Assembly: GCA_003241285.1 (NCBI GenBank)
Contig: QFOT01000001.1
Location: 4,645-68,644, forward strand
Reading direction: 5' to 3'
DNA length: 64,000 nt
Source of the DNA: Micavibrio aeruginosavorus
GTDB lineage: Bacteria > Pseudomonadota > Alphaproteobacteria > Micavibrionales > Micavibrionaceae
Positions 16,389-50,027 of the stretch are shown piece after piece. The first letter of the stretch is position 1. Every line of letters begins with the position of its first letter. The position numbers and the translations under genes were made by a program. The notes below the pieces were generated by a model. It saw only the letters and a program-made list of their open reading frames with translations. It did not search any database and was not told the DNA's origin.

Positions 16389-17648
16389 ATGCCTGAAGAT
16401 ATTCTCGATCGCCTGACCAGACTCTATCCCAAAGCCATCGAGCCCGGCCTTGAGCGCACCTGTCGCATTTTGCACGATATTGGCGACCCGCATTTAAAAC
16501 TGCCGCCCGTCATTCACATCGCGGGCACCAATGGCAAAGGCTCGACGCTCGCTTTTATTCGCAGCCTTTTAGAGGACCACGGCAAGACATGTCATGTCAT
16601 GACCTCGCCGCATCTGGTTAAATTCAATGAACGGCTTGTCATTAGCGGAGAGGAAATTTCCGATGCCGAGCTTGAAAAACTATTGCTGCGCGTCGAAGCA
16701 TTGAACGCCGGAAAACCGGTTACGTTTTTTGAAATTACCACGGCGGCGGGAATGCTCGCCTTTGCTGAAAATCCTGCCGACTATACTTTGCTCGAAACCG
16801 GCATGGGCGGGCGGCTCGACTCGACCAATGTCATCGAGCATCCGCTTGTTACCATCATCACGAATATCTCGCTCGACCACATGCAGCATCTCGGCGACAG
16901 CCTTGCCAAGATCGCTTTTGAAAAAGCGGGGATCATGAAAAGCGGCGTTCCTTGTATTATCGGCCCCGGCAATGAAAGCGTCATGGACGTCTTCGAAAGC
17001 CGCGCCGCAGAATTAAACGCCCCGCTTTACCGGTATGGGCGGGAATGGGATTACGAAATTACGGATCGCGGTTTTACGCTGACCATTAACGGACAAGATT
17101 ACGAATGCCCGAAACCGAATCTGCTCGGCGATCATCAATACGCGAATGCGGCGACGGCTATAATGTCACTTCTGTCTCTGTCATTCCTGCGAAAGCAGGA
17201 ATCTCCTTTTCATGGCATTACGAAAGCCCTCTGGCCCGCCCGCCTGCAAAAACTCAACAGCGGGAAATTATTCGATCTCCTGCCGAAAGGCTGGGAGCTT
17301 TGGCTCGACGGCGGGCATAATGAGGCGGGCGGGAAAATCCTAGGCCATCAGGCGCGGCACTGGCAGGAAGAAGACGGCACCCCGCTGCATTTAATTCTTG
17401 GCATGCTGACCACCAAAGACCCCGCCCCGTTTTTCGATCATTTGAAACCCTATATCACCAGCGCCACCGCCATCCCGATCCCCGATGAAAAACTGGCTTT
17501 TTCTGCCCTTGATCTGGCGGATCGCCTGTCGATTCACTCGGCCCCGGCGCCCGACGCCGCCATCACAGACATCGTAAAAACGGCACCCTCCGGCCGCATT
17601 CTGATCACCGGATCTCTTTATCTGGCGGGGAGCATTCTAAAAAGTTAA
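16389..17648 (+). CDS. folC: bifunctional folylpolyglutamate synthase/dihydrofolate synthase
   Basis: 419 aa with P-loop HIAGTNGKGST. Lies downstream of accD as in many alphaproteobacteria. Carries an in-frame type-A repeat (residues SFLRKQES). Confidence 0.9.
   Translation: MPEDILDRLTRLYPKAIEPGLERTCRILHDIGDPHLKLPPVIHIAGTNGKGSTLAFIRSLLEDHGKTCHVMTSPHLVKFNERLVISGEEISDAELEKLLLRVEALNAGKPVTFFEITTAAGMLAFAENPADYTLLETGMGGRLDSTNVIEHPLVTIITNISLDHMQHLGDSLAKIAFEKAGIMKSGVPCIIGPGNESVMDVFESRAAELNAPLYRYGREWDYEITDRGFTLTINGQDYECPKPNLLGDHQYANAATAIMSLLSLSFLRKQESPFHGITKALWPARLQKLNSGKLFDLLPKGWELWLDGGHNEAGGKILGHQARHWQEEDGTPLHLILGMLTTKDPAPFFDHLKPYITSATAIPIPDEKLAFSALDLADRLSIHSAPAPDAAITDIVKTAPSGRILITGSLYLAGSILKS
17180..17205 (+). 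repeat. type-A element inside the folC reading frame
   Basis: gtcattcctgcgaaagcaggaatctc is identical to the intergenic copy at 12382. It is translated in frame as ...LSLSFLRKQESPFHG... Confidence 0.9.
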
Positions 17649-18631
17649 ACCATCCTCAATTCATGCACGGCCTGATGAGGAGCATCTAAAATTCTTTCTT
17701 GGATAATATGAGCTTTGAGTAAGCTTGACTGTTCATCCAGTTCAGATACAACGCGGCGCGTGTCCCTTACATTATCGGCTCTAAAACAGGCAACAGGAAG
17801 TCGCTCTCCCGCATCCATCATGATTGTAAGAGGACCGCGAACTTTTTCGGCGTCCACAATTTCTCTTGAAGTTGACGTAAAAAGGCCTATGCCTTTTTCT
17901 TCACAAAAATCTACAAATTCAGGGCGCAAGTCAAAGATAATGCAGTCAAATGCAAAACAGCCAACCTCTTCGTGAAACTTGCTTAATTTATCTAAGCCTT
18001 CTTTAGAATATGGAGTGTTCGGCTCTACTTTGAAGCCTGGCATTACTACGTTCTCTTTACCAAAAAGATCTGTAGTCCTTATAGCGGGCATTATTTTTAA
18101 CTCTGGTTCGTAGGCTTTTATCTCGCGCAAAGTTTCCCATTTAAAACTGTTAATGACAAAGCTGTCGAGAGGCAGTTTTCCTGCTGCTATATATCTGGAT
18201 ATTTCTTGATATACAGGATTGGCCGTATCTTCTCCCTTCAACTCAATATTGACCATAAGGTTTGAACCTGTACGAGCATGATACGATTTATTTTTCTCGA
18301 CGATTAAATCCAGAACATCGGTTAGCGAGGGAGTTTTATGCCCATTGCCGATATTAAGTTGCTGAAGTTCGTTCAAGGTATATTGAGAAACTAGGCCTAG
18401 ATCACTTGCCGATCTATCTGCTCCATATATTTTTTTATTTAATTCCTCGTCATGGATAACGGCTAATTGCTTATCGGCCGTCAGAAGAACGTCAAACTCT
18501 ACGCCATCGGCTCCTAGATCAATTGCATGCCGCAAGGCCGCCAATGAATTCTCAGGCAATGTTTCATTAAATATTCTAGTTAAAGTACTAGTTGGCCCCA
18601 TTCCACGATGGCCAATTACGCATACACTCAC
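17645..18631 (-). CDS. glycerophosphodiester phosphodiesterase (GDPD) family protein
   Basis: VIGHRGMGP...ENSLAALRHAIDLGADGVEFDVLLTADKQLAVIHDEEL, i.e. the HRG / E.D / HD motifs of the GDPD fold. No signal peptide. AT-richer than its neighbours. Confidence 0.8.
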   Translation of the reverse strand: MSVCVIGHRGMGPTSTLTRIFNETLPENSLAALRHAIDLGADGVEFDVLLTADKQLAVIHDEELNKKIYGADRSASDLGLVSQYTLNELQQLNIGNGHKTPSLTDVLDLIVEKNKSYHARTGSNLMVNIELKGEDTANPVYQEISRYIAAGKLPLDSFVINSFKWETLREIKAYEPELKIMPAIRTTDLFGKENVVMPGFKVEPNTPYSKEGLDKLSKFHEEVGCFAFDCIIFDLRPEFVDFCEEKGIGLFTSTSREIVDAEKVRGPLTIMMDAGERLPVACFRADNVRDTRRVVSELDEQSSLLKAHIIQERILDAPHQAVHELRMV

Positions 18632-18715
18632 TCAGTAACACCCTTAAATTAATTATGATTTTTTCATCATTTATTATTTATATATATTTAGTATAAAATA
18701 ATTACATAACCGTTA

Positions 18716-19642
18716 ATGGATTTCAAGAAAGTAACTATGCAGGGATTTAAAATTATTGGTCATCGCGGTTGGGGCCCGACTGATAACGGCCATGCGGATA
18801 TTTCTTATCCCGAAAACACTTTGCTGGCTTTTGATCATGCTGTGTCGGAAGGTGCCGATGGCATTGAATTCGACATTCTTCTTTCAAAAGATAAAATACC
18901 CGTCGTTATTCACGACAGGCATTTATATCGTCATGTAATTCCTGAAGAAATAAATATTGTCGCGGGTAGATTTGTAGCCGACTTTACTTTTGATGAATTA
19001 AAAAAATTCCACTTGGGCCAGGGACAGTCAATTCCATCTTTGGAAGAGCTTATGGACTTTATCCAAGCTAAGTATCCCGAAGCCCTTCTGAATATGGATG
19101 TTAAAGACCCTGAGCTTGTTTCTCCTTTAAGCAAAATAATTGCAGACAGGCCGAGGGAAAATATTATCATTTCTTCTTATGACTGGGATTTGCTTCGCCA
19201 GTTTCGGCATCACGATAATGATTTGAAACTTGTTCCCGCGATTAAATCTGCCTTGCTGTTTGGCGCTGATAATATCGAGCCTCATAATTTCATGCCCCTG
19301 ACAGATAAATATCTTCCTGAAGCAAAAGAAGATATTTTTGCCATCCAGCGTGAGCTAGGCGCTATTGCACTTGACTGCGCTGTTACGGATTTAAAGATGC
19401 CGCTCATTGAATGGGCTGCTGAATGTAATGTGGGTTTGCAGGTATCTACATCAAATGACCGTGTCGGTGCCAATGAAACCAATTATGAACTGCTCAGAAT
19501 GCTTCACGGTGCCGCGCAGGAAAAATTGCCTTTTGTCATTTGCAAGGTTGATGAACCGGGTCCGGTTAAATCTAATCTAGCTCGTTATTTGGAAAGCAGC
19601 GGTAACACTCGTAATCCCGTCAGGGCTTTCAATTTCTATTAA
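18716..19642 (+). CDS. glycerophosphodiester phosphodiesterase (GDPD) family protein, divergent paralog
   Basis: IIGHRGWGP...ENTLLAFDHAVSEGADGIEFDILLSKDKIPVVIHDRHL. The start may instead be MQGFK at 18737. AT-richer than its neighbours. Confidence 0.8.
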   Translation: MDFKKVTMQGFKIIGHRGWGPTDNGHADISYPENTLLAFDHAVSEGADGIEFDILLSKDKIPVVIHDRHLYRHVIPEEINIVAGRFVADFTFDELKKFHLGQGQSIPSLEELMDFIQAKYPEALLNMDVKDPELVSPLSKIIADRPRENIIISSYDWDLLRQFRHHDNDLKLVPAIKSALLFGADNIEPHNFMPLTDKYLPEAKEDIFAIQRELGAIALDCAVTDLKMPLIEWAAECNVGLQVSTSNDRVGANETNYELLRMLHGAAQEKLPFVICKVDEPGPVKSNLARYLESSGNTRNPVRAFNFY

Positions 19643-20347
19643 TCAAAGCCCTTGATAAATTTCTTCAATCGCCGCAGCAGGGTCCGGCGCTTCGGTAATC
19701 GGCCTGCCGATGACGAGATGCGTCGCCCCGAGATCCACCGCCTCTTTCGGTGTCATCATGCGCTTTTGATCATTCGCTGCCGCGCCTTCCGGGCGGATAC
19801 CCGGCGTGATCAATACGAACTGGCAGCCGATTTCCTCGCGCAAAGTTCTGATCTCATGAGAGGAACAGACAACACCCGCCATACCGGCTTCCTTGGCAAG
19901 TTTCGCCAGACGTAAAACCTGTTTTTCGATCGGCGTGTCTTGCCCGACGAGTTTCAATCCCTCTTCATCGAAGCTGGTCAGCACAGTTACCGCGATCACC
20001 TTCGCAGGCCGCAAGCCCAGTTTCTCCGCTTCATCATTAGCCGCCTCTGCCGCCGCTTTCATCATCTCGTATCCGCCGCCCGCATGGACATTGAGATAAT
20101 CCGGCTGGAGTTTCGCCAGCGCCCGCACGGATTTTGCCACCGTGTTCGGAATATCATGCAGTTTTAAATCGAGAAAAAACGGCAGATCAGGAAACGCATC
20201 GCGTATTTTGGTGACGCCTTGCGGTCCGTGCGTATTGAAAAATTCGAGGCCCAGCTTTACGCCCGCTTTGGTCGCGGCGATGATTTCGCAAAGCTTTTCC
20301 GCACGTGAAATATCCTGCGTATCGATGGCGCAGAAAATTCTCGGCAT
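19643..20347 (-). CDS. pyrF: orotidine 5'-phosphate decarboxylase
   Basis: 234 aa with the FLDLKLHDIPNT motif. Its start overlaps the stop of the upstream gene by 1 nt (TAATG). Confidence 0.95.
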   Translation of the reverse strand: MPRIFCAIDTQDISRAEKLCEIIAATKAGVKLGLEFFNTHGPQGVTKIRDAFPDLPFFLDLKLHDIPNTVAKSVRALAKLQPDYLNVHAGGGYEMMKAAAEAANDEAEKLGLRPAKVIAVTVLTSFDEEGLKLVGQDTPIEKQVLRLAKLAKEAGMAGVVCSSHEIRTLREEIGCQFVLITPGIRPEGAAANDQKRMMTPKEAVDLGATHLVIGRPITEAPDPAAAIEEIYQGL

Positions 20348-20745
20348 TACAAAATCTCCGGCACGGCAATGCGCGGTGTTGGCTGGGCTGTATTTGAAAT
20401 TCTTATCGTTTCATTCTTCGCGGCTTGCTTAAGAGCGGCTTGACGTTCGATCTCCATGCGCTGGAAATCGATCTGTTTTTCTAAAATTGCTATTTGCTTC
20501 TTTAAAGCCCGGCGCTCGGCGCGCAGCTCTAGCGTATTGCTCCATAAAATAAGACTGCCCCAGATAAAGCCTATTATACAGGTGACGAAAATAATAAGCG
20601 GCAGGGAGAGGGCCGCTGCTTCATGCAAAGGCGACCACGTCATATCAAGATAAACGCCGCGGTTAGACAGGGTGATAAAAAATAATGCCGCGATAACCGG
20701 AAGGGTAATCAGAACCTTGATAAACAGATTGAGGAATTTCATCAT
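20347..20745 (-). CDS. LapA-like (DUF1049) inner-membrane protein
   Basis: 132 aa with two TM helices followed by a coiled-coil tail. Positioned immediately downstream of ihfB, as is common in alphaproteobacteria. Confidence 0.6.
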   Translation of the reverse strand: MMKFLNLFIKVLITLPVIAALFFITLSNRGVYLDMTWSPLHEAAALSLPLIIFVTCIIGFIWGSLILWSNTLELRAERRALKKQIAILEKQIDFQRMEIERQAALKQAAKNETIRISNTAQPTPRIAVPEIL

Positions 20746-20777
20746 GATGTATCTCCGGTTCCTTGAATCGAAAGAAT

Positions 20778-21062
20778 TTATTCGGAAATATTCAGGCGCT
20801 CGCGAAGACCTTTTCCTGTTTTAAAGAAAGGCAATCTTTTCGCATCGACGGAAACGCTTTCGCCGGTGCGCGGATTACGCCCGGTGCGGGCCTGTCTTTC
20901 TTTCACGGAAAAAGCGCCAAAGCCCCTGAGCTCAACGCGGTCGCCTTTAATCAGTGCGGCGGTCACTTCTTCAAAAATCGTATCGATGATGGTTTCGACA
21001 TCGCGCAGATAGAGGTGCGGATTTTTTTCTGCCAGAATTTGAATAAGCTCTGATCTTGTCAT
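20778..21062 (-). CDS. ihfB: integration host factor beta subunit
   Basis: 94 aa, MTRSELI...[12 protein letters not shown] (HU/IHF arm). Confidence 0.95.
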
Positions 21063-21209
21063 TCAACTAATTCCCGTTTTCCCAAAAGTTTTAAAACATG
21101 GTTTAGAACATGGTTTAGAATGGTCTATCCTGCCCTTATTTTTGACCGCTCGTCAAGTAATGCCCTGATACTATTGGCAATTTTAACTATTTTGTTGATT
21201 ATGTAATCT

Positions 21210-24200
21210 TTATTGGGTGATGATGCCTTCAATGGCTTTTTCATCAAGCTCTTTTAAATCCTCCTCGCTCAAAGGATCGTCGATATTGGGCATAGCGCCT
21301 GCCGGCGCATTCAGCGCGTCTATATTACGCTGTCGCGCGCTGGATCCGGCAGAGGTCTGAACGGAGGCCGCCTGCTCGGTAGCTTTGGCCAGTTCATCAG
21401 TCGCCTCGACTTTCATTTCTTCTGGATCCTCAATGGACGCGTCAAGATCGACATTAAGGGACATGAACTCACGATCCGGCAGGCCGAAGGCGATTTTGTA
21501 ATTGCCGCCTTTGACCGCAGGGAAAATAAAATAGCCATCGGAATCCGTTTCGGTTTTTTCGACTTCTTTACCATCTATGCCGCTGACCAATCTAACCACG
21601 ACACCTTCAAGCCCGCGCTTCAGATGGGTTAGATAGCCCGCAATCTCTGACATTTTTACGAACGGGAAATCAATCACGGGCGTCGATCCCCGGCGCGGGA
21701 TCAAATCACGGTGATCGAATTTCGGCGCGAGATAGATGTCGGGAATGGATTCTGTTTGAACAATGATACGCGCAGGCGCCTCGCCAAGCCCTGTCAGGTA
21801 AGATACGCCTTCTTTATCCGTCGCCGCTTTTTCTGATCTGGTGCTGGATTTAAATTCGACACCTTCAATCGTTTTCTCGCCGTTATCATAAATTTCATTG
21901 TTGTTGTCGTCGATAAAAGCTCTTGCCCCTAATGACGCCAGACCGCCCGTTCTAGGGTCGACAAAATGGTAGTTATTCTTTTGATCCGGTTGCAATGCCA
22001 CTCTCAGACCTACCGTGAAGGCATAGTTGTTTTCGGTGTCGGCGTTGACATCGAAATCGAGGCCGTATTTATCAAAATCCCGACTTAGCCGCAGATTAAG
22101 ATTTTTTGTTTTGCTTTCAAAATCATGACTGCCTTCAAATCTGAAACTCGTCCGCGATGAAAGGCTTTTCTGGCCGCTAAAACTCAAACGCCTGTACTTT
22201 GACGGCGCATCTTCGTCGAGATCATACAACAAGGCGCTCCTCAATCGTATATTATAGAGGCTTGCCAGAGCTGATAACTCGCCTTCAAAATCATCTATGC
22301 TCTTACTTTTTGAAAAGGTTCGAACAAGGTCGTTGTTTATGCTAATGCCCAGAAATTTAAAGGAGGTGATCTGCTCAAAAATTCTGTCGTCTTCGCGATT
22401 TAGAAAATCCCTGTCCTCGACACGGAATGTGAGGTTGAGCCCGCCAAAATTTCTGCTTAGATTGACCTCGTTCCGGCTCTTTATGTCCTGATCTTCGGAA
22501 AGGAAATTCCGGTACGTGGTATGCGAAGCACCAAGATTGAATCCGAAAGGCTTCGTCGCTGCCGCCAGTTCATAGGCGCGACGACCGCTATCGGCGGCCA
22601 GGGCCTGGCCCTGCAGGTTGATGCCGCTGAATGACGTCGCTGCTGAAACGGCAGCGCCGCTCGCGCGAACCGAGTCCCGGTCATCGAAATTACTTCCGCT
22701 TTCAAATGAAGTGCTGGTAAAATTGCCGACATCGTTATTTATAGCATCCTGCGGGCCTGAATAAACGCTCGTGCCAAGAGTGAAGAATTTGCTGACGCCG
22801 TAGAAAATCTGCCCGCTCATGCCCGGCGTTCGGTTGCTCTGTGCATCTTCATCGAATGGCAGAAAATCTGATTCAGGCGTACCGGCAGCGAAATCATATT
22901 GGATTTCGCCGTCGCGCAGGAGTCTGGGGCCTCTTGCAATTTCACGCTTTATGCTGGTTTTCTGTCCTTGTGGTCCATAAAGTATAACTTCAAAATTATT
23001 AAATCCGGACGGAAGATTAACGTTTTCGAACACGAACCGGCCATCTGACCCGACCTGCTGGAAAGCGATAAAGGAACCGTTACGGTACAGTTCAGCATCC
23101 CATCCGACTGGCGCGTCGCCATCGAGGATAAAATTCTCGGAATTGGTTGCGTATCTTGAACCAAGCCTTGAATCTGAAGAAATTTCAATCCCCGCGCCCC
23201 GCTGTCCGCCTGCAAACAGGGGCACGCTTGGAAAAGACACGTCGCCGAATGAAATTCTTCCGGCTCGCAATGGACCCAAAAGATTATTCTGGTTGTCCCG
23301 CCGTTGGAATGTAAGGCGGGAATTTGAAATCTCGGAAGTTCCCCGGCTGTTATAGCGAGTGCCGATGGCATAGTCGGCCTCGAATTTTGCAATGTCCTGA
23401 TTTCCCTGCAATGTCGCAAGACCGAGAAAACTTTGACCGGAGCTGCTTTTTTGTATCCCGCCTGTGGTCGTGATATAGAGCGACGGATAAGAAAAATTTC
23501 TGTACGGGGCTAAAACGGCATTTTGGGGTTTTATTGCATCATAGCGAAAAGTCTTCATTCTCTTTTCGGCGTTTAGCAGACGTTTCATTCTTTCCTGGAA
23601 AGGCAAGTCGCTTCCGGTGTCGAGATCTAAAACCAGCGAGTTTATGTTGAGGGTCGCGGAAATGCCAAACCACTTTTTAAGCGATGACGCCCTGACAAAA
23701 ATATCATCTTCGATAATTTCAGCCTCACCGGCCTCAAGTTTCTCTTTCTTGCCATCGACAAGAACATCTCCGGAATTGAGATCAAGCTGAAACACATTGT
23801 CAGATGAAATAAAGAATCCTTCCGCCTTCTTGTCGCCTGTATTTACGGTAATAGCAAAAGTCAGTAATTCCGCCATCGAGCGAAGCGGAACCATAACGTC
23901 GCTGTAGCTCGCCCCGGCCGGCAAGAAGATGCTAAGACCCTCTTCTCTGATCATCCCATTGATATTGACGGCCACGAGTATTTCATCATTGCCGGAAAGC
24001 TCTATCTTATTTTCTGTTTCAGTATCGTTGATGACATTGGCGGGCGGAGAATCCTGGTTTAATTGTTGTGCCCCTTCCTCTTGCAACTGAATTTCAGGCG
24101 CAGGCATTCCTTCAGCGGCCTGCGCAAAAGCGCCGCTGTTCACGGTTAGGCAAAGACTCAAAACAATCGCCTTACATAAAGCGATTGATAGCGTTTTCAC
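21210..24200 (-). CDS. fimbrial usher-like outer-membrane protein with a C-terminal extension
   Basis: 996 aa, signal peptide ends AFA/QA. Usher-like barrel/plug stretch: GRISFGDVSFPSVPLFAGGQRGAGIEISSD...DAELYRNGSFIAFQQVGSDGRFVFENVNLPSGFNNFEVILYGPQGQ. C-terminal carboxypeptidase-regulatory-like segment DSDGYFIFPAVKGGNYKIAF followed by an acidic tail. Confidence 0.7.
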   Translation of the reverse strand: MKTLSIALCKAIVLSLCLTVNSGAFAQAAEGMPAPEIQLQEEGAQQLNQDSPPANVINDTETENKIELSGNDEILVAVNINGMIREEGLSIFLPAGASYSDVMVPLRSMAELLTFAITVNTGDKKAEGFFISSDNVFQLDLNSGDVLVDGKKEKLEAGEAEIIEDDIFVRASSLKKWFGISATLNINSLVLDLDTGSDLPFQERMKRLLNAEKRMKTFRYDAIKPQNAVLAPYRNFSYPSLYITTTGGIQKSSSGQSFLGLATLQGNQDIAKFEADYAIGTRYNSRGTSEISNSRLTFQRRDNQNNLLGPLRAGRISFGDVSFPSVPLFAGGQRGAGIEISSDSRLGSRYATNSENFILDGDAPVGWDAELYRNGSFIAFQQVGSDGRFVFENVNLPSGFNNFEVILYGPQGQKTSIKREIARGPRLLRDGEIQYDFAAGTPESDFLPFDEDAQSNRTPGMSGQIFYGVSKFFTLGTSVYSGPQDAINNDVGNFTSTSFESGSNFDDRDSVRASGAAVSAATSFSGINLQGQALAADSGRRAYELAAATKPFGFNLGASHTTYRNFLSEDQDIKSRNEVNLSRNFGGLNLTFRVEDRDFLNREDDRIFEQITSFKFLGISINNDLVRTFSKSKSIDDFEGELSALASLYNIRLRSALLYDLDEDAPSKYRRLSFSGQKSLSSRTSFRFEGSHDFESKTKNLNLRLSRDFDKYGLDFDVNADTENNYAFTVGLRVALQPDQKNNYHFVDPRTGGLASLGARAFIDDNNNEIYDNGEKTIEGVEFKSSTRSEKAATDKEGVSYLTGLGEAPARIIVQTESIPDIYLAPKFDHRDLIPRRGSTPVIDFPFVKMSEIAGYLTHLKRGLEGVVVRLVSGIDGKEVEKTETDSDGYFIFPAVKGGNYKIAFGLPDREFMSLNVDLDASIEDPEEMKVEATDELAKATEQAASVQTSAGSSARQRNIDALNAPAGAMPNIDDPLSEEDLKELDEKAIEGIITQ

Positions 24201-24265
24201 TTACATACAGTCTCCAAAAAGACGTGTTAAACGGAAATCCCGGGCAGGGATCTTCGGCTCCTTGG

Positions 24266-25099
24266 TTAAGGAATTGAGAGTGACGTTTCCTGAACGAGAT
24301 CGGGTTTTGATTTTTCTCCGGTCAGTAAACGCAATTGTATTTTTCCGCCCTGAATCCCCTCAGGCAGTTTAAAGTCGAACTTATAATCCCGCTTGTCGAT
24401 TTCCCGGTATATATAGGCTGTGCGGCGTTTGCCGATTTGCTTAGAGTCATATAAGACGTCAAAGAAGGCTACGCCCTGCCCGTTTCCGGAGCGGGTCAGC
24501 TGCATCGACACCGTATATGTTCCCGGCTGCGCGCCGGGCTTCACCGATTTCGAAATTTTAGGATCGATCCAGTTTACCGATGTTTCCACTTTTCCTTTGC
24601 TAAGGGTGACGGGCATCATGACCGAATACGCTAATGGTACGCTGGTCACAGCCTGACCACTTGCGACCGCCAAACCTTCCACTTCTGGCTTGCTTTGCTT
24701 AGTGCTGTCTTCAAGAAAATAGACATGCGAATGATACTGGCCGTCTGGCGTATCGGCTGGCATTTTGGCCATTATCCGGACAGATTGTTTTTGCCCTGCC
24801 GGGATTGTGAATTGACGTGGGAAAAAGCGAAGCATTTTCTTTGCCGAATAGTCAAAATTATCAACGGTCTGCGTTACACCCTTCTCCAGCATAATAATAT
24901 CCTTCACGCCGACAGTGTACGTCCGGTCCAAATTGGACATGTTGGTGACGTTCATAACCGCCACTTTGCTTTTTTCGCTAAGATTGACGCGCGTGGGGCT
25001 GACAAAGAGTATTTCCGACGCAAAAGCAGGAATAGCATAAAGTGCAGTCAGAATAATTTGCACCGCGAGGAGCGTTAGAAAATTTCTGTTTTTTTTCAT
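24266..25099 (-). CDS. PapD-like periplasmic fimbrial chaperone
   Basis: 277 aa, signal peptide ends AFA/SE. The N-terminal strands ILFVSPTRVNLSEKSKVAVMNVTN resemble the chaperone F1/G1 region with its conserved Arg. Sits between the subunit and usher genes. Confidence 0.65.
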   Translation of the reverse strand: MKKNRNFLTLLAVQIILTALYAIPAFASEILFVSPTRVNLSEKSKVAVMNVTNMSNLDRTYTVGVKDIIMLEKGVTQTVDNFDYSAKKMLRFFPRQFTIPAGQKQSVRIMAKMPADTPDGQYHSHVYFLEDSTKQSKPEVEGLAVASGQAVTSVPLAYSVMMPVTLSKGKVETSVNWIDPKISKSVKPGAQPGTYTVSMQLTRSGNGQGVAFFDVLYDSKQIGKRRTAYIYREIDKRDYKFDFKLPEGIQGGKIQLRLLTGEKSKPDLVQETSLSIP

Positions 25100-25115
25100 T
25101 GTCCAACCTTTTCCA

Positions 25116-25676
25116 TTATTGAAAAACTGCGCTAAGGGTTAAAGAAGCACCGCCGCCATTTGAGCTTGTGAAAGAGCTCTCGCCGCTTAAGGCGCCGGAA
25201 GAAATATTGAGCTTTCCACCAAAAAAGAGTTTCGGATTCGGCGAATTATCAAGATCAATGACAAGAGCATCAGGCGCGCCGCCGCCGGCTCCTTCGCATT
25301 CATCAGCGCTGCCAGGAGGCAATCCTGTATCTACCGCCACTTCGATATCGCTGATGGGAATAGGGGATCCGCTGCTGCTGGCCAACGCACCGGTATCGTC
25401 GCATCTGATTTCAACAATGCCGGTTGAGCCCGTGATCGAAATCTGGGCCGGGACCGCGCCACCTTGATAATATAGCCCGCTTCCGGTGAGATTAACGGCT
25501 CCGTTGGTTCCAAGTGTTAATTCGCCGCTGTGAAAAGATGAATATTCTATCAATCCGAAATTCATGTTGCTGTCGAGCGCCATTTGCACCGTCTGGGCAA
25601 ATGCCGGGGAGATCAACGAAAGCAAAAGAATTAATCCCGGCGATTTACAGAACGCGCCTTTGATTCGGGCATACAT
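25116..25676 (-). CDS. DUF4402-like secreted fimbrial subunit (second/minor)
   Basis: 186 aa, signal peptide ends AFA/QT. Contains MNFGLIEYSSFHSGELTLGTNGAV, one Cys pair and a C-terminal strand LTLSAVFQ. Confidence 0.6.
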   Translation of the reverse strand: MYARIKGAFCKSPGLILLLSLISPAFAQTVQMALDSNMNFGLIEYSSFHSGELTLGTNGAVNLTGSGLYYQGGAVPAQISITGSTGIVEIRCDDTGALASSSGSPIPISDIEVAVDTGLPPGSADECEGAGGGAPDALVIDLDNSPNPKLFFGGKLNISSGALSGESSFTSSNGGGASLTLSAVFQ

Positions 25677-25747
25677 ACCTCTAGATATATTGAAATTTGC
25701 CTTTAAAATATATGCTTAACGAAACTAGGGCAGGTTTAATACATTAA

Positions 25748-25756
25748 TTATCCACA
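25748..25756 (+). promoter_or_regulatory. perfect DnaA-box 9-mer (TTATCCACA)
   Basis: Exact 9-mer in the gap between the two subunit genes, next to the hairpin. The match may be fortuitous. Confidence 0.2.
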
Positions 25757-25760
25757 TATA

Positions 25761-25789
25761 AAAACCGCCGCTTTGGAAGCGGCGGTTTT
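25761..25789 (-). terminator. hairpin/attenuator after the first subunit gene
   Basis: On the minus strand: gaaaaccgccgc-ttccaaa-gcggcggttttt followed by T/A. Lies 17 nt downstream of the stop of 25806..26399. Confidence 0.65.
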
Positions 25790-25805
25790 CATGAATTCTT
25801 CGGGA

Positions 25806-26399
25806 TTATTGGTAAGTAACAGCCAGAGTGATCGTCGTACCGCCTGTACCTGTTGCGTAAACGCCATCGGTATCGAGCGGCGAAGCCGTCAGGTCAAGAG
25901 AGGCGCCGACAAGAATCGTATCATCTGTTGCCAGGTCCATTGTTTCGGATGTGGTTGTAGAGTCGACACAAGCATTCGCTGCTCCCGTGGCAACGCCAAT
26001 CGTATTGTCTGCCCCGGCAATAACTTCAATACCAACTATATTGAGCGTGTTACCGGCACCGTCGCCCATAGTTGCCGTGGCGTCACAGGCGATATCCACA
26101 TCGGAAGCGCCATCACCGGCAACGGTAATTTCACCGGCTCCTGGAGCCAGAGGTGTTGTATCAAAGGTTACCCCCGTACCTCCGGCAACAGCGTCGTTCG
26201 TTGCAAGTGTAACGGTACCGGAGTTAGCGGCCAGGTAATCGATTGTGCCGAAGCTCATGATAGCGGCTTCTGTAAGCTCAATCGCCGCACGGCCTTGAGC
26301 TGTTGCGTTAATTTCTAATTCTGTTGCTTTGGCGGAGTTTACTCCCCCTAACGCGACGGTTAAAGCAGTGGCAAGCAGCAATTTCTTTGCGGTTCTCAT
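25806..26399 (-). CDS. DUF4402-like secreted fimbrial subunit (first/major)
   Basis: 197 aa, signal peptide ends AKA/TE. Contains MSFGTIDYLAANSGTVTLATNDAV and is Thr/Gly/Ala/Asp-rich, with one Cys pair and a C-terminal strand ITLAVTYQ. SD aaaggga lies upstream. Confidence 0.65.
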   Translation of the reverse strand: MRTAKKLLLATALTVALGGVNSAKATELEINATAQGRAAIELTEAAIMSFGTIDYLAANSGTVTLATNDAVAGGTGVTFDTTPLAPGAGEITVAGDGASDVDIACDATATMGDGAGNTLNIVGIEVIAGADNTIGVATGAANACVDSTTTSETMDLATDDTILVGASLDLTASPLDTDGVYATGTGGTTITLAVTYQ

Positions 26400-26722
26400 A
26401 ATAAATCCCTTTCTGAGGATGTGTGTTGCTAAAATAATATTACCTGTTCGTCGTTAAGTTCGATTTAAATAAAGATAAAATTCGATCTTTATTCAGACCT
26501 TCCTCGTCTATACTTAACAAAAAGTTCCTAATGAAAGCTTAAATGCACAGGCCGTGCCAGATCACGCCGATAAGCTCAAAACAGCTGAAAATAAATGATA
26601 AATTGATTGTGGATCATTTTTAGGGAAATTAGTTTACTTCTATCTCATGCAGAATTTGGTGAGATCGGCATATTTTCTTACCCGGTAAATTTTTCCAGCG
26701 CGGCAATAAATACCTTTAAATT

Positions 26723-27334
26723 TTACTGGCCGAGCGTATCGTCCACCACCGGAATATCCTCGATCAGGAGCGTTTCCTCCAGAATCTTGACCTGGCCGCC
26801 GGGCGCGATATCGACAATCGACTTAAACAGGGAATCCTTGAACATCATATGGATGCCAAGGCGGTAGACCCCGTTCTCCGTGCTTTCCAGCTGTATCGGC
26901 GCCACCATTTTGCCGATCGCTTTGCGGGCGGCGGGCGGCGGCTCTTCCCGCCACTGGATATCGTCGACACTTTCGATAATGATAAATCGTCCATGGCGCC
27001 CCCGGACGAAGGAAAAGAAAAACCGCGCGTAATCGATCACGGTTTTTTCGTTCAGCGCTACAGGGGCATTTTCGTTCAGGCCATAAATCGGCGCGTTGGT
27101 AAAATCTAGGATGGTCGCCTGATCACCCAGCATGACGACGAAGCGGCGGGCGGGCGGCATATTCTTATGGTCAGCTATATCGAAAAACTTTGAATTTTTA
27201 TAAAAAGGAAGCTCGCGCGCCATAATGACCGTAGAAGCCGGGTCGAACTGGCTGCCGTCAAAATCGCTTTTCAGCTTTTCGACGAGATCTTTGGTTTGCG
27301 CTTTGTCGAGTTTGACATAGGAGTCTTGGAACAT
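26723..27334 (-). CDS. conserved hypothetical protein, paralog of 6299..6919
   Basis: 203 aa with the shared core described at 6299. Lies 51 nt downstream of the TPR/FkbM gene and upstream of the fimbrial operon, on the same strand. Confidence 0.7.
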   Translation of the reverse strand: MFQDSYVKLDKAQTKDLVEKLKSDFDGSQFDPASTVIMARELPFYKNSKFFDIADHKNMPPARRFVVMLGDQATILDFTNAPIYGLNENAPVALNEKTVIDYARFFFSFVRGRHGRFIIIESVDDIQWREEPPPAARKAIGKMVAPIQLESTENGVYRLGIHMMFKDSLFKSIVDIAPGGQVKILEETLLIEDIPVVDDTLGQ

Positions 27335-27385
27335 GAGGAGCCCTTAATTTTTACTTATATATATAGTGTAATTCTTAAAAGCTTC

Positions 27386-29515
27386 TTACCGCTCATGTAA
27401 TTCCTTGATTTCGAGGGCTTTGGCCCTTGATTGGTCTTTTTCGGTAACGGCCAGATACATGGGGTCGTTAGGGGTGGCAAAGTCATATATTTTATAGCCG
27501 AAATCTTTCAGGTAAGAAGCTATTTCCATGACGCTGTCACCATGCGCTTCGAAATAGATCATTGGTTTTAAGTGGGTCAGAATTTCTGTGGCGCCTTTCA
27601 GGGCCTCCAGCTCCATACCCTCTATATCCATCTTGATCAGTTTGCATTCTTTCAGCTTGAGCGAATCCAGTGGCCGCACGGCGACTTCATGTTCACCTTG
27701 CCGGGCCTTGGGCTGAAATCCGCCGAAATTCTGGAATTTGGTCGGATCGAGTTCCTGAACTTTAAGAATGCCTTCTTTTTCACCGCAAGCCTGATTCAGT
27801 GTATAGACATTCGTCAGGCTGTTATTTGCGATATTGGCGCACAGGCTTTGAAATAATATGCGCTGGGGCTCCATGGCATATAGACGCCCTGACGCGCCGA
27901 TGATTTTGGCGATAGGTAATGTATGGGAACCTATATTTGATCCAAGCTCGACGACGGTATCGCCGAAATCCAGCAAGGATTTCATGAAACCTATTTCATG
28001 GTCGCACCAGCTGCCGCCAGAGATCAGGCTCCGCCCTATATATTCGTCGTTTCTGTTGGCGACCACGGTTCCATATTTGCCTTTTACGAGAATATTCCAT
28101 TCCTGCGTCAACCCGTATGTCGACATCAGGCGTACGCGCTCGCTGTTCATGGGATTATTCATGACCTTTTCATCATTTGTGAAAGTCCAGAAGATGGAGC
28201 CTTCTTTATGCTGCAGGTCTTTGCCAAAAAGCTCGTCACCGGAAATCGTGTCGATAGTTACTTTTTTAGAATAATTACTATTCATGTCGAACAAGGCAAC
28301 CTGGTCGATAAACCAGAATTCTTTCCGGCTGGCTATGTTTTTAAGAATAATATTGCTCATGTAAGAAAGAGCGTCGAGCGCGCTATCGCTTTTGGAAAAA
28401 CTGACAAACCCGCCGGCAAACTTATCCCATAAAGGGGCTGCGGGATTATAGGTCAATAAAATATCTGCATTTTTAATTTTGTCGTTCTTGAACGGATCCT
28501 TGCGCAAAATGGCGTCCGCGTCTACCAGGGCCAGCCTCTCGGATAGGCTCGACTCTTTCAATATCTGCCATGCGCGGCAAAACCGCATAGTCGAATAATA
28601 GGTCGGCATGCCCGATACGACTTGGTATGAAATTTTTTCATAGGAATAGCTTAAATTCAGTTCGGGAAATTTTTCATCGTACATCTGTAAAAGTTCGAGA
28701 TCCACGCCCATCGGCGCGTATAGATGCACATGAATTCCAAAATCCCGATCTTTGATTTCCAGCGCCGACAGAATAAGCGTCGGTATAAATTCACGGAGAT
28801 AATTCGTTTCCGCCGCCGCCATTAAAATATTTTTTTGGCTCGGGGATTTCACCATGATGAGCTTCGGGAATTTTTCCAGAAGTTCTTCATTGAGCTGCGG
28901 GTGTTTGGCTAAATCGCCGGACAGATAAAGAGGGGACGGTTTTCTGTCCTTGATGGCTTCGCCTATGCTGATCAGGTTTAAAATGCGCTCCGGCAGCAAT
29001 TTACTTTTCGTTGCGGATAAATAAAGACTTTTCCATTGCTCGTCACCGGCTAGGTAATAGATAAGGAAAAGCAGCGACATCGACGGGGCGTGGTTTGGCT
29101 CTTTTTTCCGGGCGATTTTCAGCTCTTTTACAGCTTCGTTAAAATCACGGTTCTTTACATGCAGAAATGCTTTATCAAAATTTAAATACGCGCTGTCGGG
29201 ATAAGCTTCTACGAGCGATGAAAAATATTCGATCAGCTCGCTATTGGGAATTTTCTTCTGCCTCCAGTAAATGCAAATCTGCCAGGAGAGGAAAGCGTTT
29301 TGCGCTTCGGGCGGAAATTTTATCAGGCAATTTTCAGCAAAAGCCAGTGCTTCGTCATATCTGTTCTGTTCGATCATCTGGCTGATCTTGGTGATGGCTT
29401 CGCCTTCCTCCGTCGCCTCCTCATAATATTTTGGCATAATGAGAGTAAGATCCGGATTACTGTCAAAATAGTAACCGTTCACTTCTCTTAAAATATTGTA
29501 ATCTTTGTCTGCCAT
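27386..29515 (-). CDS. multidomain TPR / DxD glycosyltransferase-like / FkbM-family methyltransferase protein
   Basis: 709 aa. N-terminal TPR-like repeats (…YDEALAFAENCL…, …DFNEAVKELKIARKKEPNH…). Central region has LALVDADAILRKD (DxD). C-terminal FkbM-type SAM methyltransferase: VVELGSNIGSHTLPIAKI...RLYAMEPQ...IKMDIEGMELEALKGA. Confidence 0.7.
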   Translation of the reverse strand: MADKDYNILREVNGYYFDSNPDLTLIMPKYYEEATEEGEAITKISQMIEQNRYDEALAFAENCLIKFPPEAQNAFLSWQICIYWRQKKIPNSELIEYFSSLVEAYPDSAYLNFDKAFLHVKNRDFNEAVKELKIARKKEPNHAPSMSLLFLIYYLAGDEQWKSLYLSATKSKLLPERILNLISIGEAIKDRKPSPLYLSGDLAKHPQLNEELLEKFPKLIMVKSPSQKNILMAAAETNYLREFIPTLILSALEIKDRDFGIHVHLYAPMGVDLELLQMYDEKFPELNLSYSYEKISYQVVSGMPTYYSTMRFCRAWQILKESSLSERLALVDADAILRKDPFKNDKIKNADILLTYNPAAPLWDKFAGGFVSFSKSDSALDALSYMSNIILKNIASRKEFWFIDQVALFDMNSNYSKKVTIDTISGDELFGKDLQHKEGSIFWTFTNDEKVMNNPMNSERVRLMSTYGLTQEWNILVKGKYGTVVANRNDEYIGRSLISGGSWCDHEIGFMKSLLDFGDTVVELGSNIGSHTLPIAKIIGASGRLYAMEPQRILFQSLCANIANNSLTNVYTLNQACGEKEGILKVQELDPTKFQNFGGFQPKARQGEHEVAVRPLDSLKLKECKLIKMDIEGMELEALKGATEILTHLKPMIYFEAHGDSVMEIASYLKDFGYKIYDFATPNDPMYLAVTEKDQSRAKALEIKELHER

Positions 29516-29919
29516 AAGAACCCCGCAAATTAAAGCCAGTTAAATCTACGCCAGATTTATCTGCGCCAATAGAGGGAAAATCTTGGCCTTATTTTCGATA
29601 CGCCCTGATCGGGGGATCTCTGTGGATAGAAGGCTGATAAAGTAACGGATTATTCATGTATGAAGCTATCCAGATTCCGCGCTCAGCTTAAAAGAGATTC
29701 CGCCACCATGGAGAAACTTTATAAGCCGGCATTCTTGAATCGAGGATATCTCGTTTTGTTCACGGCAGATATTCGGGGACTCTCATATTTGCGGTATGAG
29801 TCCATAGCGTTTCGCATGTGGGTAAGACTCGGGACAGATTTTATCCCCATGACTCATGCCCCCTAATATCTATTACTACTGAATCTAAGATATATAATAT
29901 TTAAAGAAAGAGGAGTTTT

Positions 29920-30765
29920 TCAGTTTATCGACAGGCTTACATTCGGATGATCGTTGGTAAAATGGAAATGGGTTTCCCGAAGATTATCTTCGTTGATAAT
30001 GGCTTGTCTGATTTTTCCGATCTTTATGCTGATCTTAAAATGATCGCTATTGATTTGGCTTTGTGCGAAATTCGCATGGGACAGATAGGCGGCTATCGAG
30101 GTAAAGGGCATCGAAAATGATGATTCCAGAAGCTTATCGAGAAAATTTGGATCTGCTTTAATTTGCACATAGGTGTCCTTGATCCGCTCTCTTTCGTTTT
30201 CCCTGTAAAAATCAGCAGCATCTTTTTTTCTGCTTTCCGGAATGAGCAATTCAAGCTTGCTGACATCCAGAAGCGATTGGTCCGGCAGGCTAGGTAAAAC
30301 CGCGTTGGTCAGGTAATCGAGCATATCGATTTTGGATGGGGCGTAGAGGGAGTTCTCTTCCTTGATAGCCTGCCCGCGTGTCGGATTAGGTATTTCCTCC
30401 ATCAGGGAGAGAAAATGGTTAATCCGGGCTTCGATCCCTTTCAAAATCACTTTTTTCCTTGCTGGCGACATATCCCCCTGCTCGATCCCTGCTTTTGGCT
30501 CGAGGAACAGTGTTATCCCGCCCTTGGTCTCGCTGTCGTCGCAGCAAACCTGTATTTGATCAGCTGCCGTTCCGTAGGTACTGTGCAGAATATCATCCAC
30601 CAGGCTGGCGAGCTTGTATGAGGCCGACAAATTACGCGGCTCCGGTTTTTTATCCTCTTGTGAGGGGGTATAGGCACAAATCCGGAATAAATCCTTCAGG
30701 CTTTGGCGGGGCAGCTCTTGCAGGGTGGTCGGGATGGCAGTGGACCGGAATAATTCTTTACGCAT
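29920..30765 (-). CDS. hypothetical protein (281 aa), AT-rich orphan
   Basis: ORF only. No signal peptide, TM helix or recognisable motif. Confidence 0.5.
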   Translation of the reverse strand: MRKELFRSTAIPTTLQELPRQSLKDLFRICAYTPSQEDKKPEPRNLSASYKLASLVDDILHSTYGTAADQIQVCCDDSETKGGITLFLEPKAGIEQGDMSPARKKVILKGIEARINHFLSLMEEIPNPTRGQAIKEENSLYAPSKIDMLDYLTNAVLPSLPDQSLLDVSKLELLIPESRKKDAADFYRENERERIKDTYVQIKADPNFLDKLLESSFSMPFTSIAAYLSHANFAQSQINSDHFKISIKIGKIRQAIINEDNLRETHFHFTNDHPNVSLSIN

Positions 30766-47809: not shown

Positions 47810-48055
47810 AATATATTTAAGTATGTGTTATTTGTTTTATTTATCTTAATTCCATTAAGTTCTGCCCTCTCTGCCTCAGAAGACACGAAGGAGCCTTTCA
47901 CTCAATGCAATGAGGGGCAACATATTCAGCTCGAACTAGGCAAGCAGCATATAAAATTTTCTATCCCGGAAAAATATTTCTCTCCAAGGGATATTTACAA
48001 GAAAGTTCAAGATCCAGCTGAGCTAATTAGTGTTCAGCTAAAAAAACCGATATGA
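47807..48055 (+). CDS. secreted hypothetical protein, N-terminal part of a probably split gene
   Basis: 82 aa with signal peptide ...SSALSA/SE. Ends in an ATGA overlap with the next ORF, immediately after an A7 tract (48040..48046). Confidence 0.5.
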   Translation: MNIFKYVLFVLFILIPLSSALSASEDTKEPFTQCNEGQHIQLELGKQHIKFSIPEKYFSPRDIYKKVQDPAELISVQLKKPI

Positions 48056-48483
48056 CGCAAAACTGTCATGAAGGGTTTTCAACCAATAAAATATCAAGTC
48101 AGTTTTACAAGGTAACAATTCACCCCTATGGGGGCAATGTAATACCTAATGCGATTAAATTTGAGTTACGCTGGCAGCCTATTGACAAAGGGATTGTGTC
48201 AAATGAATTTCAATTATTTACGAATGAATACAAAGAAGAAAGGCAATGGGAAAGAACAGATTTGCTTATACCTGTAGACAAAAAACAATCTAAAATTCTA
48301 TTTTTAAAATGTTTGTATTCATTACCTTCAGTTACACCCACCAAAATGACAGGTTGCGGCGTTACCTCAGACTTCGAGGGAAGAATGTATTTGAGATATA
48401 GCATAAAGCCTGAAGAAATCGGGAATTATAAAGAAATTGATCAAAAAATTAAATCCAAGCTTTCTGAGTTTATGGTCGAATAA
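48052..48483 (+). CDS. hypothetical protein, C-terminal part of a probably split gene
   Basis: 143 aa. Its C-terminal region aligns with the C-terminus of ORF 50028..51287 (MYLRYSIKPEEIGNYKEIDQKIKSKLSEF versus DYDIRYTFDKRSIENYPAINREIKNFIAKY). Confidence 0.5.
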   Translation: MTQNCHEGFSTNKISSQFYKVTIHPYGGNVIPNAIKFELRWQPIDKGIVSNEFQLFTNEYKEERQWERTDLLIPVDKKQSKILFLKCLYSLPSVTPTKMTGCGVTSDFEGRMYLRYSIKPEEIGNYKEIDQKIKSKLSEFMVE

Positions 48484-48513
48484 TTTGAAAAAATATTCAG
48501 GAGAGATTCGATG
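48484..48513 (+). repeat. partial (3' end) copy of the leader cassette
   Basis: tttgaaaaaatattcaggagagattcgatg matches the last ~30 nt of the cassette, including the SD and ATG. Confidence 0.7.
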
Positions 48514-48663
48514 AAGAGATTATCCAAAAAACAGAAGGTTATTATCGCTGCTTGCTGCTTGCTCTTTGCTGCTTGCTGTTTATTGCTTTCTATTAACTCT
48601 GAAAATAATTCCCATACGATTAGTCAGCCAAGATTGCGAGTTAATGAGTTCCGAACAAAATAA
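48511..48663 (+). CDS. putative 50-aa lipoprotein/secreted peptide
   Basis: MKRLSKKQKVIIAACCLLFAACCLLLSINSENNSHTISQPRLRVNEFRTK, with SD aggagag. Has a lipobox-like IAAC. Below the ORF-track cutoff. Confidence 0.4.
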   Translation: MKRLSKKQKVIIAACCLLFAACCLLLSINSENNSHTISQPRLRVNEFRTK

Positions 48664-48681
48664 ACTGTAAAGGAGCAAACT

Positions 48682-49205: not shown

Positions 49206-49259
49206 GGTTTAAAATTGCCTGATTAAATTCATCATTCATGTCGCGGCTTGCCATTTAGT

Positions 49260-49997: not shown

Positions 49998-50027
49998 AAG
50001 AAAAAAGATAAATCAGGCGGGCAAATA

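Follow-up and report, generated by a model that had tools for sequence, protein, structure and literature searches.

Do four neighbouring genes of the predatory alphaproteobacterium Micavibrio aeruginosavorus encode a chaperone-usher pilus and, if so, one of a recognised kind? The question is raised by positions 21210-26399 of a 64-kb stretch of contig QFOT01000001.1 (the whole analysed stretch is called the window below), where a first inspection without database searches (the sequence-only reading) had proposed a self-contained surface-fibre assembly system of a poorly described type. Gram-negative bacteria adhere chiefly by fibres of the chaperone-usher type. These systems comprise three groups with six clades, of which the classical and alternative groups are found only in Beta- and Gammaproteobacteria and the archaic (sigma) group is widespread (PMC9452303). 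For an alphaproteobacterial host, an archaic system would therefore be expected by default.

Our analysis indicates that the locus is very probably a chaperone-usher assembly system. It almost certainly relies on the familiar principle of secretion, and its components come from divergent families that lack characterisation and are misannotated in a systematic way. The operon appears complete, self-contained and intact, and is probably functional. To the earlier description the analysis adds two kinds of subunit, a terminator hairpin, an SdrD_B-type end of the usher and the assignment of the usher's extra length mostly to disordered tails.

Gene layout of the locus

The open reading frame (ORF) listing gives four co-directional minus-strand genes in the order subunit A, subunit B, chaperone, usher (Table 1), separated by gaps of 129, 16 and 65 nt, in exact agreement with the arrangement first described. 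All four products begin with a signal-peptide-like N-terminus as read from the sequence, and the traits originally reported for the two secreted subunits (lengths of 197 and 186 aa, one Cys pair each and the quoted C-termini) are all present. Proteins under the NCBI locus tags DI586_00145, DI586_00150 and DI586_00155 show 100% identity with those of the window. The four ORFs are genuine features and not chance ORFs, as follows from DUF4402 scores at gathering level, hundreds of full-length usher homologues and a gene order that is conserved in every informative locus described below.

The NCBI model of the usher (P0001) has 977 aa, which by arithmetic places its start about 19 residues into the 996-aa ORF, so that most of the signal peptide is lost; the longer form is supported by homologues with lengths of 1000-1001 aa, whose alignments start at residue 1 and cover 100% of the query. 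A sigma-70 promoter scan yielded no score above the shuffled expectation, and we therefore claim no promoter. A search of the 64-kb window for a further copy of the system found none.

The 996-residue protein is modelled as a plugged usher

A structural model of the 996-aa protein, built with AlphaFold2 (AF2) on a 49-sequence family alignment, reached a mean predicted local distance difference test (pLDDT) score of 81.9. Counted along the one-dimensional DSSP string and not by inspection in three dimensions, its strands follow the order of six barrel strands, a six-strand plug and 18 further barrel strands. This is the plan of ushers, which are 24-strand barrels with a plug inserted after strand 6. 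In a Foldseek comparison of the model with the PDB, the top 19 matches were all FimD or PapC (E = 3e-29 to 2.5e-10, 12-13% identity), and the isolated translocation pores 2vqi, 3fip and 3ohn were matched as well (E = 1e-19 to 1e-15). Porins (E ~1e-6 to 1e-4) and LptD appeared far lower in the list, more than 20 orders of magnitude behind the ushers. As modelled, the protein is thus an usher with a plugged 24-strand barrel.

The usher-type motif noticed earlier is present, and it proved to be the most conserved stretch of the family. It lies in the plug as the signature GDAPxGWDAELYRNG..DGRF.F.NV.L..G.N.F.IILYGPQGQ, and the alignment columns of residues 361-412 are invariant or nearly so. An hhalign comparison placed this stretch on FimD residues 256-385, presumably the region of the FimD plug (E = 0.046, probability 1.1%), a result that is consistent with the assignment and not significant. 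Because the hhalign alignments, each made against a single E. coli protein (FimD, FimC or FimA), were not significant, they were used for residue correspondence only.

At the C-terminus, the carboxypeptidase-regulatory-like sandwich and acidic tail pointed out by the sequence-only reading were both recovered: the sandwich matches SdrD_B at 44.9 bits (cut-off 29.7) and CarboxypepD_reg just under threshold. A sandwich of this type occurs in 49/49 family members, in which PapC_C and PapC_N are never found, and is therefore a family-defining feature. The N-terminal periplasmic domain, which would serve as the docking site for chaperone-subunit complexes, gives a weak match to Cu_amine_oxidN1 (20.9 bits; 12 of the 49 members, best E = 1.3e-7).

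The usher had also been called over-long. It is indeed longer than classical ushers, but its folded core (residues ~70-932) is about the size of theirs, and the excess lies in a linker (24-67) and a tail (935-996). Length varies across the family (841-1560 aa among the best 150 representatives), owing to tails and accessory modules. Many related ushers have a peptidoglycan-binding module at one end, either SPOR or LysM at the very C-terminus, where the window protein has its acidic tail, or AMIN at the N-terminus (Table 1). Such modules suggest that many ushers of this DUF4402-linked family are tethered to peptidoglycan, and their placement at the ends fits both usher termini being periplasmic. 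We know of no cell-wall-tethered usher in classical systems.

The 277-residue protein has the predicted fold of pilus chaperones

The AF2 model of the 277-aa protein (mean pLDDT 88.7) shows two immunoglobulin (Ig)-like β-sandwich domains (residues ~31-130 and ~159-275) and a helix at residues 2-21 that represents the signal peptide. A 28-residue loop (131-158, pLDDT 50-67) lies ahead of the strand LAYSVMMPVTL. Foldseek matched this model to pilus chaperones of every class (Caf1M, CfaA, YadV, FimC, CsuC, SafB, DraB, EcpB, SfaE and CupB2; E ~1e-10 to 1e-8), in line with the PapD-type identity proposed from its first strands. The best pilus-chaperone match was Caf1M (4b0m_M, E = 4.4e-10), with an identity of 12-14%. 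Judged by its predicted fold, the protein is a periplasmic pilus-type chaperone. The outcomes that the sequence-only reading had named as refuting, a 996-aa protein that is no plugged barrel and a 277-aa protein that is no Ig-like chaperone, were thus not obtained.

The conserved cleft arginine of such chaperones is Arg8 in PapD and FimC. In the family alignment Arg37, within the motif SPTRV, is invariant, and hhalign set SPTRV on GATRV of FimC (32% probability, consistent and not significant), whose arginine we take to be Arg8, the anchor of the subunit carboxylate. The strand in the region of the second basic cleft residue, which is Lys112 in PapD and FimC, carries the invariant pattern G120-x-Y122-H123-x-H125-x-x-F128-x-E130. 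Further invariant motifs of the family are R203-x-G-N-G-Q-G209 and Y231-R-E233. To our knowledge, the motifs at 120-130, 203-209 and 231-233 have no counterpart in PapD-like chaperones.

Gene order is conserved and flanks are not

Relatives were collected by a scan for the plug motif [WY]DAELYRN with one genome per species, which gave at least 566 confirmed loci, 80 of which were examined. The carriers among these 80 include Micavibrio and related metagenome-assembled genomes, Pseudoalteromonas, Alcanivorax and many Sphingomonadales (Parasphingorhabdus, Novosphingobium, Sphingomicrobium, Qipengyuania and Sphingopyxis), the last order accounting for most of them; a plasmid search added the betaproteobacterium Polaromonas. 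Searched against representatives clustered at 50% identity, the usher profile matched 4,508 proteins at E<=1e-30, some of them SdrD_B-repeat proteins, and 27,761 at E<=1e-3. Each of the 150 top-ranking representatives scored E <1e-200, a few again being SdrD_B-repeat proteins and not ushers.

Gene order was read in the 80 loci with hidden Markov models built from the family alignments, and 74 loci had enough upstream sequence to be informative. The order subunit(s)-chaperone-usher on one strand was found in 74/74, with one subunit gene in 49 loci, two in 21, three in 3 and four in 1. Flanking genes are unrelated between lineages. A conserved order within unrelated flanks indicates a self-contained module, as had been supposed for this poorly described type of fibre system. 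On plasmid 2 of Polaromonas sp. JS666 (NC_007950.1, L082 834-8437), which is conjugative, the module consists of three subunit-region genes (two annotated as DUF4402), a chaperone and an usher, and lies between two IS6-family transposase genes, which suggests composite-transposon-like mobility.

In the closest Micavibrio genomes, which share the neighbouring genes, the flanks are 85-99% identical (ihfB and pyrF, 87-99%), except for lapA (70-77%) and the gene for a TPR-FkbM methyltransferase (53-55% in two of three). In the same genomes (L001, L002, L003 and L008 against window 19643-29515) identity is 57-70% for the usher and falls to ~45% for subunit A (L002). The fibre genes thus diverge faster than most flanking genes.

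Database names obscure the family. RefSeq and UniRef list its ushers as "carboxypeptidase regulatory-like domain-containing protein", "SdrD B-like domain-containing protein" or "MSCRAMM family protein", and RefSeq names the subunits "DUF4402 domain-containing protein"; a correct name ("fimbria/pilus periplasmic chaperone", "molecular chaperone") is given only to the chaperone, and only in some entries. This misnaming reflects the weak sequence-level recognition of the components other than the subunits. A literature search found no paper on DUF4402, PF14352 or IPR025514, which agrees with the earlier remark that no experimentally characterised DUF4402 fibre was known, and nothing relevant on ushers or chaperone-usher systems in sphingomonads or Micavibrio, or on archaic systems in Alphaproteobacteria.

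Two kinds of DUF4402 subunit

Both window subunits pass the Pfam gathering threshold of DUF4402 (PF14352; 25.2 bits) with 26.1 bits for subunit A and 28.6 bits for subunit B, confirming the family to which the sequence-only reading had assigned them, and 37/42 related subunits match the same model at E<=0.1. Each mature subunit, A and B alike, contains two Cys. Their sequences are consistent with an incomplete Ig-like fold that a donated strand would complete. Of 106 family subunits, 89 have an aromatic residue in the penultimate position (Tyr in 79, Phe in 10), and the chain closes with Gln in 69 and with Asn in 13; most of the 106 end in Tyr/Phe followed by Gln, Asn, Leu or Pro. A penultimate aromatic beside the carboxylate is a classical chaperone-recognition feature of pilins, and the ...V-x-Y-Q ending of the subunits resembles the C-terminus of E. 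coli FimA (..KVQYQ).

The two window subunits differ at their mature N-termini, which begin at the signal-peptide junctions ..NSAKA|TELE.. (subunit A) and ..SPAFA|QTVQ.. (subunit B). In the subunit alignment, subunit A carries an extension of ~13 residues, TELEINATAQGR, ahead of the shared core, and subunit B has a gap opposite it. The hydrophobic residues of the extension alternate, a trait of known donor strands. We gauged the extension in relatives as the number of residues between the hydrophobic core of the signal peptide and the conserved FG motif. This distance is 34 residues in subunit A and 17 in subunit B, and 31-39 across all single-subunit loci. In all Micavibrio-type and Pseudoalteromonas loci it is 12-24 residues for the chaperone-proximal subunit and 27-36 for upstream subunits. 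Every sole subunit therefore has the extension, which is missing only from the chaperone-proximal second subunit. This pattern matches the prediction of donor-strand exchange, by which polymerising subunits must carry an extension.

By the same token, subunit A would be the major, polymerising subunit. Subunit B, having no extension, could sit only at the distal end of a fibre, and on balance we favour it as a candidate tip or initiator subunit. The statement that the operon has no tip-adhesin gene accordingly holds for a two-domain adhesin and needs amending for subunit B. A different extra subunit type was seen in several sphingomonad two-subunit loci (L054:3555-4079, L057:3397-3930, L079:3667-4200, L069:3380-4093 and L075:3556-4080). 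It has C-R-L-C just past the signal peptide, ends in E/D-Y-L or E-Y-F and keeps the long N-terminal region.

A terminator-like hairpin follows the putative major-subunit gene

A pattern scan located an intrinsic-terminator-like hairpin ~20 nt past the stop codon of the subunit A gene, with a GC-rich stem of 10 bp (Table 1). The 129-nt intergenic RNA between the two subunit genes folds at -31 kcal/mol (z = -2.9). Hairpins in relatives were counted when they reached a free energy (ΔG) of <= -12 kcal/mol and were followed by a T-run. Such hairpins occur 3' of the sole subunit gene in 40/49 loci and 3' of the first of two subunit genes in 11/21. In a further 5 of the 21, all sphingomonad-type loci with both subunits extension-bearing, the hairpin stands 3' of the second. 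Elsewhere it is rare (chaperone-usher gap, 2/79; 3' of the usher, 6/80).

The reverse-strand control was not negligible, amounting to 25/49 for the sole-subunit class, likely because many hairpins are also flanked by an A-run. The positional enrichment after an extension-bearing subunit gene is clear, and the hairpins of different loci are unrelated to each other in sequence. A terminator also follows the major-subunit gene in the pap and fim operons. The hairpin would act as an attenuator, so that more of subunit A is made than of the proteins encoded downstream. In the sphingomonad loci with the C-R-L-C subunit, the terminator hairpin lies 3' of the other (..DYQ) subunit.

Relation to known systems and alternative explanations

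Several observations weigh against assigning the locus to the chaperone-usher systems. The Pfam Usher model (PF00577) aligns with residues 337-708 of the 996-aa protein at 22.9 bits (E = 4.8e-5), under the cut-off of 27.1, and only 9/49 family members match it at E<=0.01 (best E = 2.8e-9). PapC_N and PapC_C are unmatched at E<=1 in the window usher and never appear in the 49 members; taken with the weak Cu_amine_oxidN1 match, this suggests that docking may differ from that of classical ushers. NCBIfam gave no meaningful usher assignment (PefC/AfrB usher, E = 0.048). PapD_N scored 15.5 bits on the chaperone (E = 0.018), under its cut-off of 23, PapD_C gave no match, and the chaperone alignment contains no obvious conserved counterpart of Lys112, whose region is instead occupied by the invariant strand pattern given above. 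PDB searches with the single sequences of the usher, the chaperone and subunit A returned nothing relevant. With family profiles, the usher search found no usher chain, only SdrD/NOMO-type sandwiches (E = 3.6e-13 to SdrD B domains), the chaperone search found no pilus chaperone chain, and the DUF4402 search found no solved pilin and no credible match. The hhalign alignment of the DUF4402 profile with FimA covers the last 15 residues only, at 1.5% probability. Sequence methods alone would thus have left the interpretation unproven; it is the predicted structures that settle the identities of the usher and the chaperone.

The best single match of the chaperone by fold and by profile is likewise not a pilus chaperone. 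It is the Gram-positive WxL-interacting protein (WxLIP) of Enterococcus faecium (9i25/9i1y), which is the top Foldseek match (9i25_C, E = 2.1e-10) and the sole PDB profile match (E = 0.0033); Pfam WxLIP_PGBD gives E = 0.009. By template modelling (TM) score, WxLIP (0.36-0.39) falls below the pilus chaperones (0.42-0.62). WxLIP (DUF916/DUF3324, Enterococcus) is, moreover, a Gram-positive cell-wall protein without an usher partner, whereas the chaperone gene described here always stands beside an usher gene. The match is a hint that the pilus chaperones of Gram-negative bacteria may be linked to proteins of the Gram-positive WxL system.

Could the 996-aa protein be some other barrel, a porin or a SusC/TonB-like protein with a CarboxypepD_reg domain, and its neighbours unrelated secreted proteins? 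Its database names would suit this explanation, as would the fact that only the SdrD_B/CarboxypepD_reg part exceeds curated thresholds, and porins do occur low in the Foldseek list. The lead of ushers over all other barrels in that list, a plug-in-barrel strand order that is the usher's, and a Pfam Usher alignment spanning 372 residues speak against it. The prealbumin-like domain is, furthermore, at the C-terminus, not the N-terminus where SusC-type transporters have theirs, and linkage to genes for a pilus-chaperone fold and pilin-like proteins is invariant. On fold ranking and synteny we rejected a porin- or SusC-like identity, to which we assign a very small probability.

Among the chaperone-usher systems, type 1 and P pili are nearest to the usher model, which matches FimD and PapC both in full complexes and as isolated pores. 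The correspondence extends to the plug, to the TRV arginine of FimC and to the FimA-like C-terminus of the subunits. The differences are considerable: usher identity is 12-13%, and Fimbrial (PF00419), PapC_N and PapC_C are absent, neither PF00419 nor a CS1-type Pfam model matching the two window subunits or 42 relatives. There are also no lectin-domain adhesin, adaptor or terminator subunits, C-terminal domain 2 of the usher belongs to another family, and its N-terminal domain is weakly Cu_amine_oxidN1-like.

The locus might instead belong to the archaic (sigma, Csu/CupE/SCPU-type) group as an outlier and not form a separate lineage. The host is an alphaproteobacterium, and only the archaic group is widespread beyond Beta- and Gammaproteobacteria (PMC9452303), so occurrence itself is a shared trait. 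As in Csu of Acinetobacter baumannii (CsuA/B-A-B-E, CsuC, CsuD), small secreted subunits are followed by a chaperone and an usher, and assembly by donor-strand complementation and exchange would be expected here too. The chaperone model superposes on CsuC (6fqa, 5d6h, 6fq0 and 6fjy; E ~1e-9, TM-score up to 0.60). The earlier suggestion that DUF4402 resembles SCPU/Csu pilins nevertheless found almost no support: SCPU (PF05229) gives no match to either window subunit, no subunit reaches the threshold of that model, and among 42 relatives a single subunit gives a faint match (E = 0.029), against 37 of the 42 matching DUF4402. A twin hairpin of the rod subunit (A'-A''/B-B') is unique to archaic pilins (PMC9452303). 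The ushers also depart from Csu, missing the Usher, PapC_N and PapC_C thresholds (40/49 miss the Usher model at E<=0.01) and ending in the SdrD_B/CarboxypepD_reg sandwich, and in place of the two-domain tip adhesin CsuE there is a candidate tip subunit with one domain and no extension. The chaperone is no closer to CsuC than to Caf1M, CfaA and FimC. We consider archaic membership unlikely.

A second alternative concerns the product. Chaperone-usher-like machinery may build an amorphous capsule-like or thin polyadhesive layer like Caf1 (F1 antigen) of Yersinia pestis and not a defined fibre. The minimal subunit-chaperone-usher set of Caf1/Caf1M/Caf1A, Saf and Afa/Dr is mirrored in the 49 of 74 related loci with a single subunit, Caf1M is the best pilus-chaperone match, and the window operon contains no two-domain adhesin gene. 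A long loop before the donor strand is a hallmark of Caf1M-type (FGL) chaperones, which build such polymers, and the 28-residue loop 131-158 precedes the putative donor strand here; its length, however, was read from a stretch that the model predicts with low confidence. The second, extension-less subunit type in the window implies a defined tip and sets the locus apart from this group, as do 12-14% chaperone identity, a PapD_N score below threshold, a different subunit family and hosts that are environmental Alpha-, Beta- and Gammaproteobacteria and not enteric pathogens. We regard a capsule-like product as rather unlikely, and it differs from the favoured explanation, a chaperone-usher system building a fibre, in morphology only.

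Tentatively, and at somewhat less than even odds in our estimation, the family may lie outside the six clades recognised so far and represent a seventh major chaperone-usher lineage, one that would be abundant in environmental Alpha-, Beta- and Gammaproteobacteria. The possible hallmarks of such a lineage would be DUF4402 pilins, ushers that evade usher models and have a prealbumin-like end, often with SPOR, LysM or AMIN, and chaperones whose closest relatives by sequence among solved structures are WxLIPs.

Proposed assembly mechanism and implications

We consider the core of the following mechanism likely. The genes, the predicted folds of usher and chaperone, the conserved gene order, the distribution of the extension and the terminator are observed here; the donor-strand chemistry, the order in which subunits are incorporated, the shape of the fibre and its role are what we infer. 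All four proteins would be exported by the Sec pathway. In the periplasm, the chaperone would capture each DUF4402 subunit by donor-strand complementation, lending a β strand to its incomplete Ig-like fold, and Arg37 would anchor the carboxylate end of the subunit (...V-x-Y/F-Q). Chaperone-subunit complexes would dock at the periplasmic N-terminal domain of the usher, whose plug would gate the 24-strand barrel. Subunit B, which without an extension could accept but not donate a strand, would enter first and form the distal tip. Subunit A would then polymerise behind it by donor-strand exchange, its N-terminal extension taking the place of the chaperone strand in the subunit ahead. The growing fibre would be extruded through the unplugged barrel with its base held by the two C-terminal usher domains, and the hairpin after the subunit A gene would ensure that far more of subunit A is made than of subunit B, the chaperone or the usher.

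The product would most likely be a thin adhesive or biofilm fibre. Such a fibre could help an epibiotic predator attach to its prey; the family is also common in non-predatory bacteria. If the assignment is correct, many environmental bacteria carry pili that annotation has missed, their ushers being named after a small accessory domain and their pilins left as a DUF. This would affect most Sphingomonadales sampled, predatory Micavibrio, marine Pseudoalteromonas and Alcanivorax, and Polaromonas plasmids. It would also give DUF4402 a function, correct a systematic misannotation and provide a candidate attachment organelle for an epibiotic predator. For the usher mechanism, the family would offer a distant outgroup from which to judge how indispensable the N-terminal docking domain, C-terminal domain 2 and the Lys112-type residue are. 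No new secretion principle is indicated.

Feature coordinates and neighbouring genes

Table 1. Coordinates of the fibre genes, their parts and adjacent features in the window, and of accessory modules in related ushers (residues)
Feature	Position	Strand	Description
Subunit A	25806-26399	-	197 aa, C-terminus ITLAVTYQ
Intrinsic-terminator-like hairpin	25754-25783	-	ACCGCCGCUU-CCA-AAGCGGCGGU then UUUUUAUAU; pattern scan
Subunit B	25116-25676	-	186 aa, C-terminus LTLSAVFQ
Chaperone	24266-25099	-	277 aa, contains ILFVSPTRVNL...VAVMNVTN
Usher	21210-24200	-	996 aa including signal peptide, GTG start, stop codon 21210-21212
Usher, signal-peptide helix	residues 6-23	-	AF2
Usher, disordered acidic linker	residues 24-67	-	AF2
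Usher, N-terminal periplasmic domain	23616-23993 (residues ~70-195)	-	confident alpha/beta domain, AF2
Usher, helix	residues 200-215	-	AF2
Usher, translocation barrel (encloses plug)	21987-23483 (strands 1-6, ~240-341; strands 7-24, ~433-738)	-	DSSP
Usher, plug	22932-23132 (residues ~357-423)	-	six-strand insertion after strand 6, DSSP
Usher, C-terminal beta domain 1	21696-21968 (residues ~745-835)	-	position of usher C-terminal domain 1; AF2; no Pfam match
Usher, C-terminal beta-sandwich 2	21405-21677 (residues ~842-932)	-	position of usher C-terminal domain 2; SdrD_B/CarboxypepD_reg (prealbumin-like)
Usher, acidic low-confidence tail	21213-21398 (residues 935-996)	-	pLDDT 40-49
Peptidoglycan-binding modules in related ushers	P0026 947-1019; P0027 927-1002; P0037 937-1013; also P0294, P0231		
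SPOR and LysM in a related usher	P0168 978-1057 (SPOR), 1310-1356 (LysM)		
AMIN in a related usher	P0045 17-91		
203-aa protein	26723-27334	-	no Pfam match
709-aa protein	27386-29515	-	TPR repeats and FkbM-type methyltransferase domain (63.8 bits)

In the window, the operon is followed downstream by ihfB, lapA and pyrF and preceded by the genes for the 203-aa protein and the 709-aa TPR-FkbM methyltransferase. We rejected both upstream genes and the ihfB-lapA-pyrF group as parts of the system: they accompany it in the closest Micavibrio genomes only and are absent in other carriers. At a G+C content of 0.48, the operon is not compositionally unusual against the window background of ~0.49-0.50; dips occur elsewhere in the window, at 18001-20000 (0.43), 28001-30000 (0.44) and 48001-50000 (0.40). 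Two divergently transcribed, paralogue-like genes at 17645-18631 (minus strand) and 18716-19642 (plus strand), whose products both start with (I/V)IGHRG(M/W)GPT, look from their sequences like glycerophosphodiester-phosphodiesterase-type genes.

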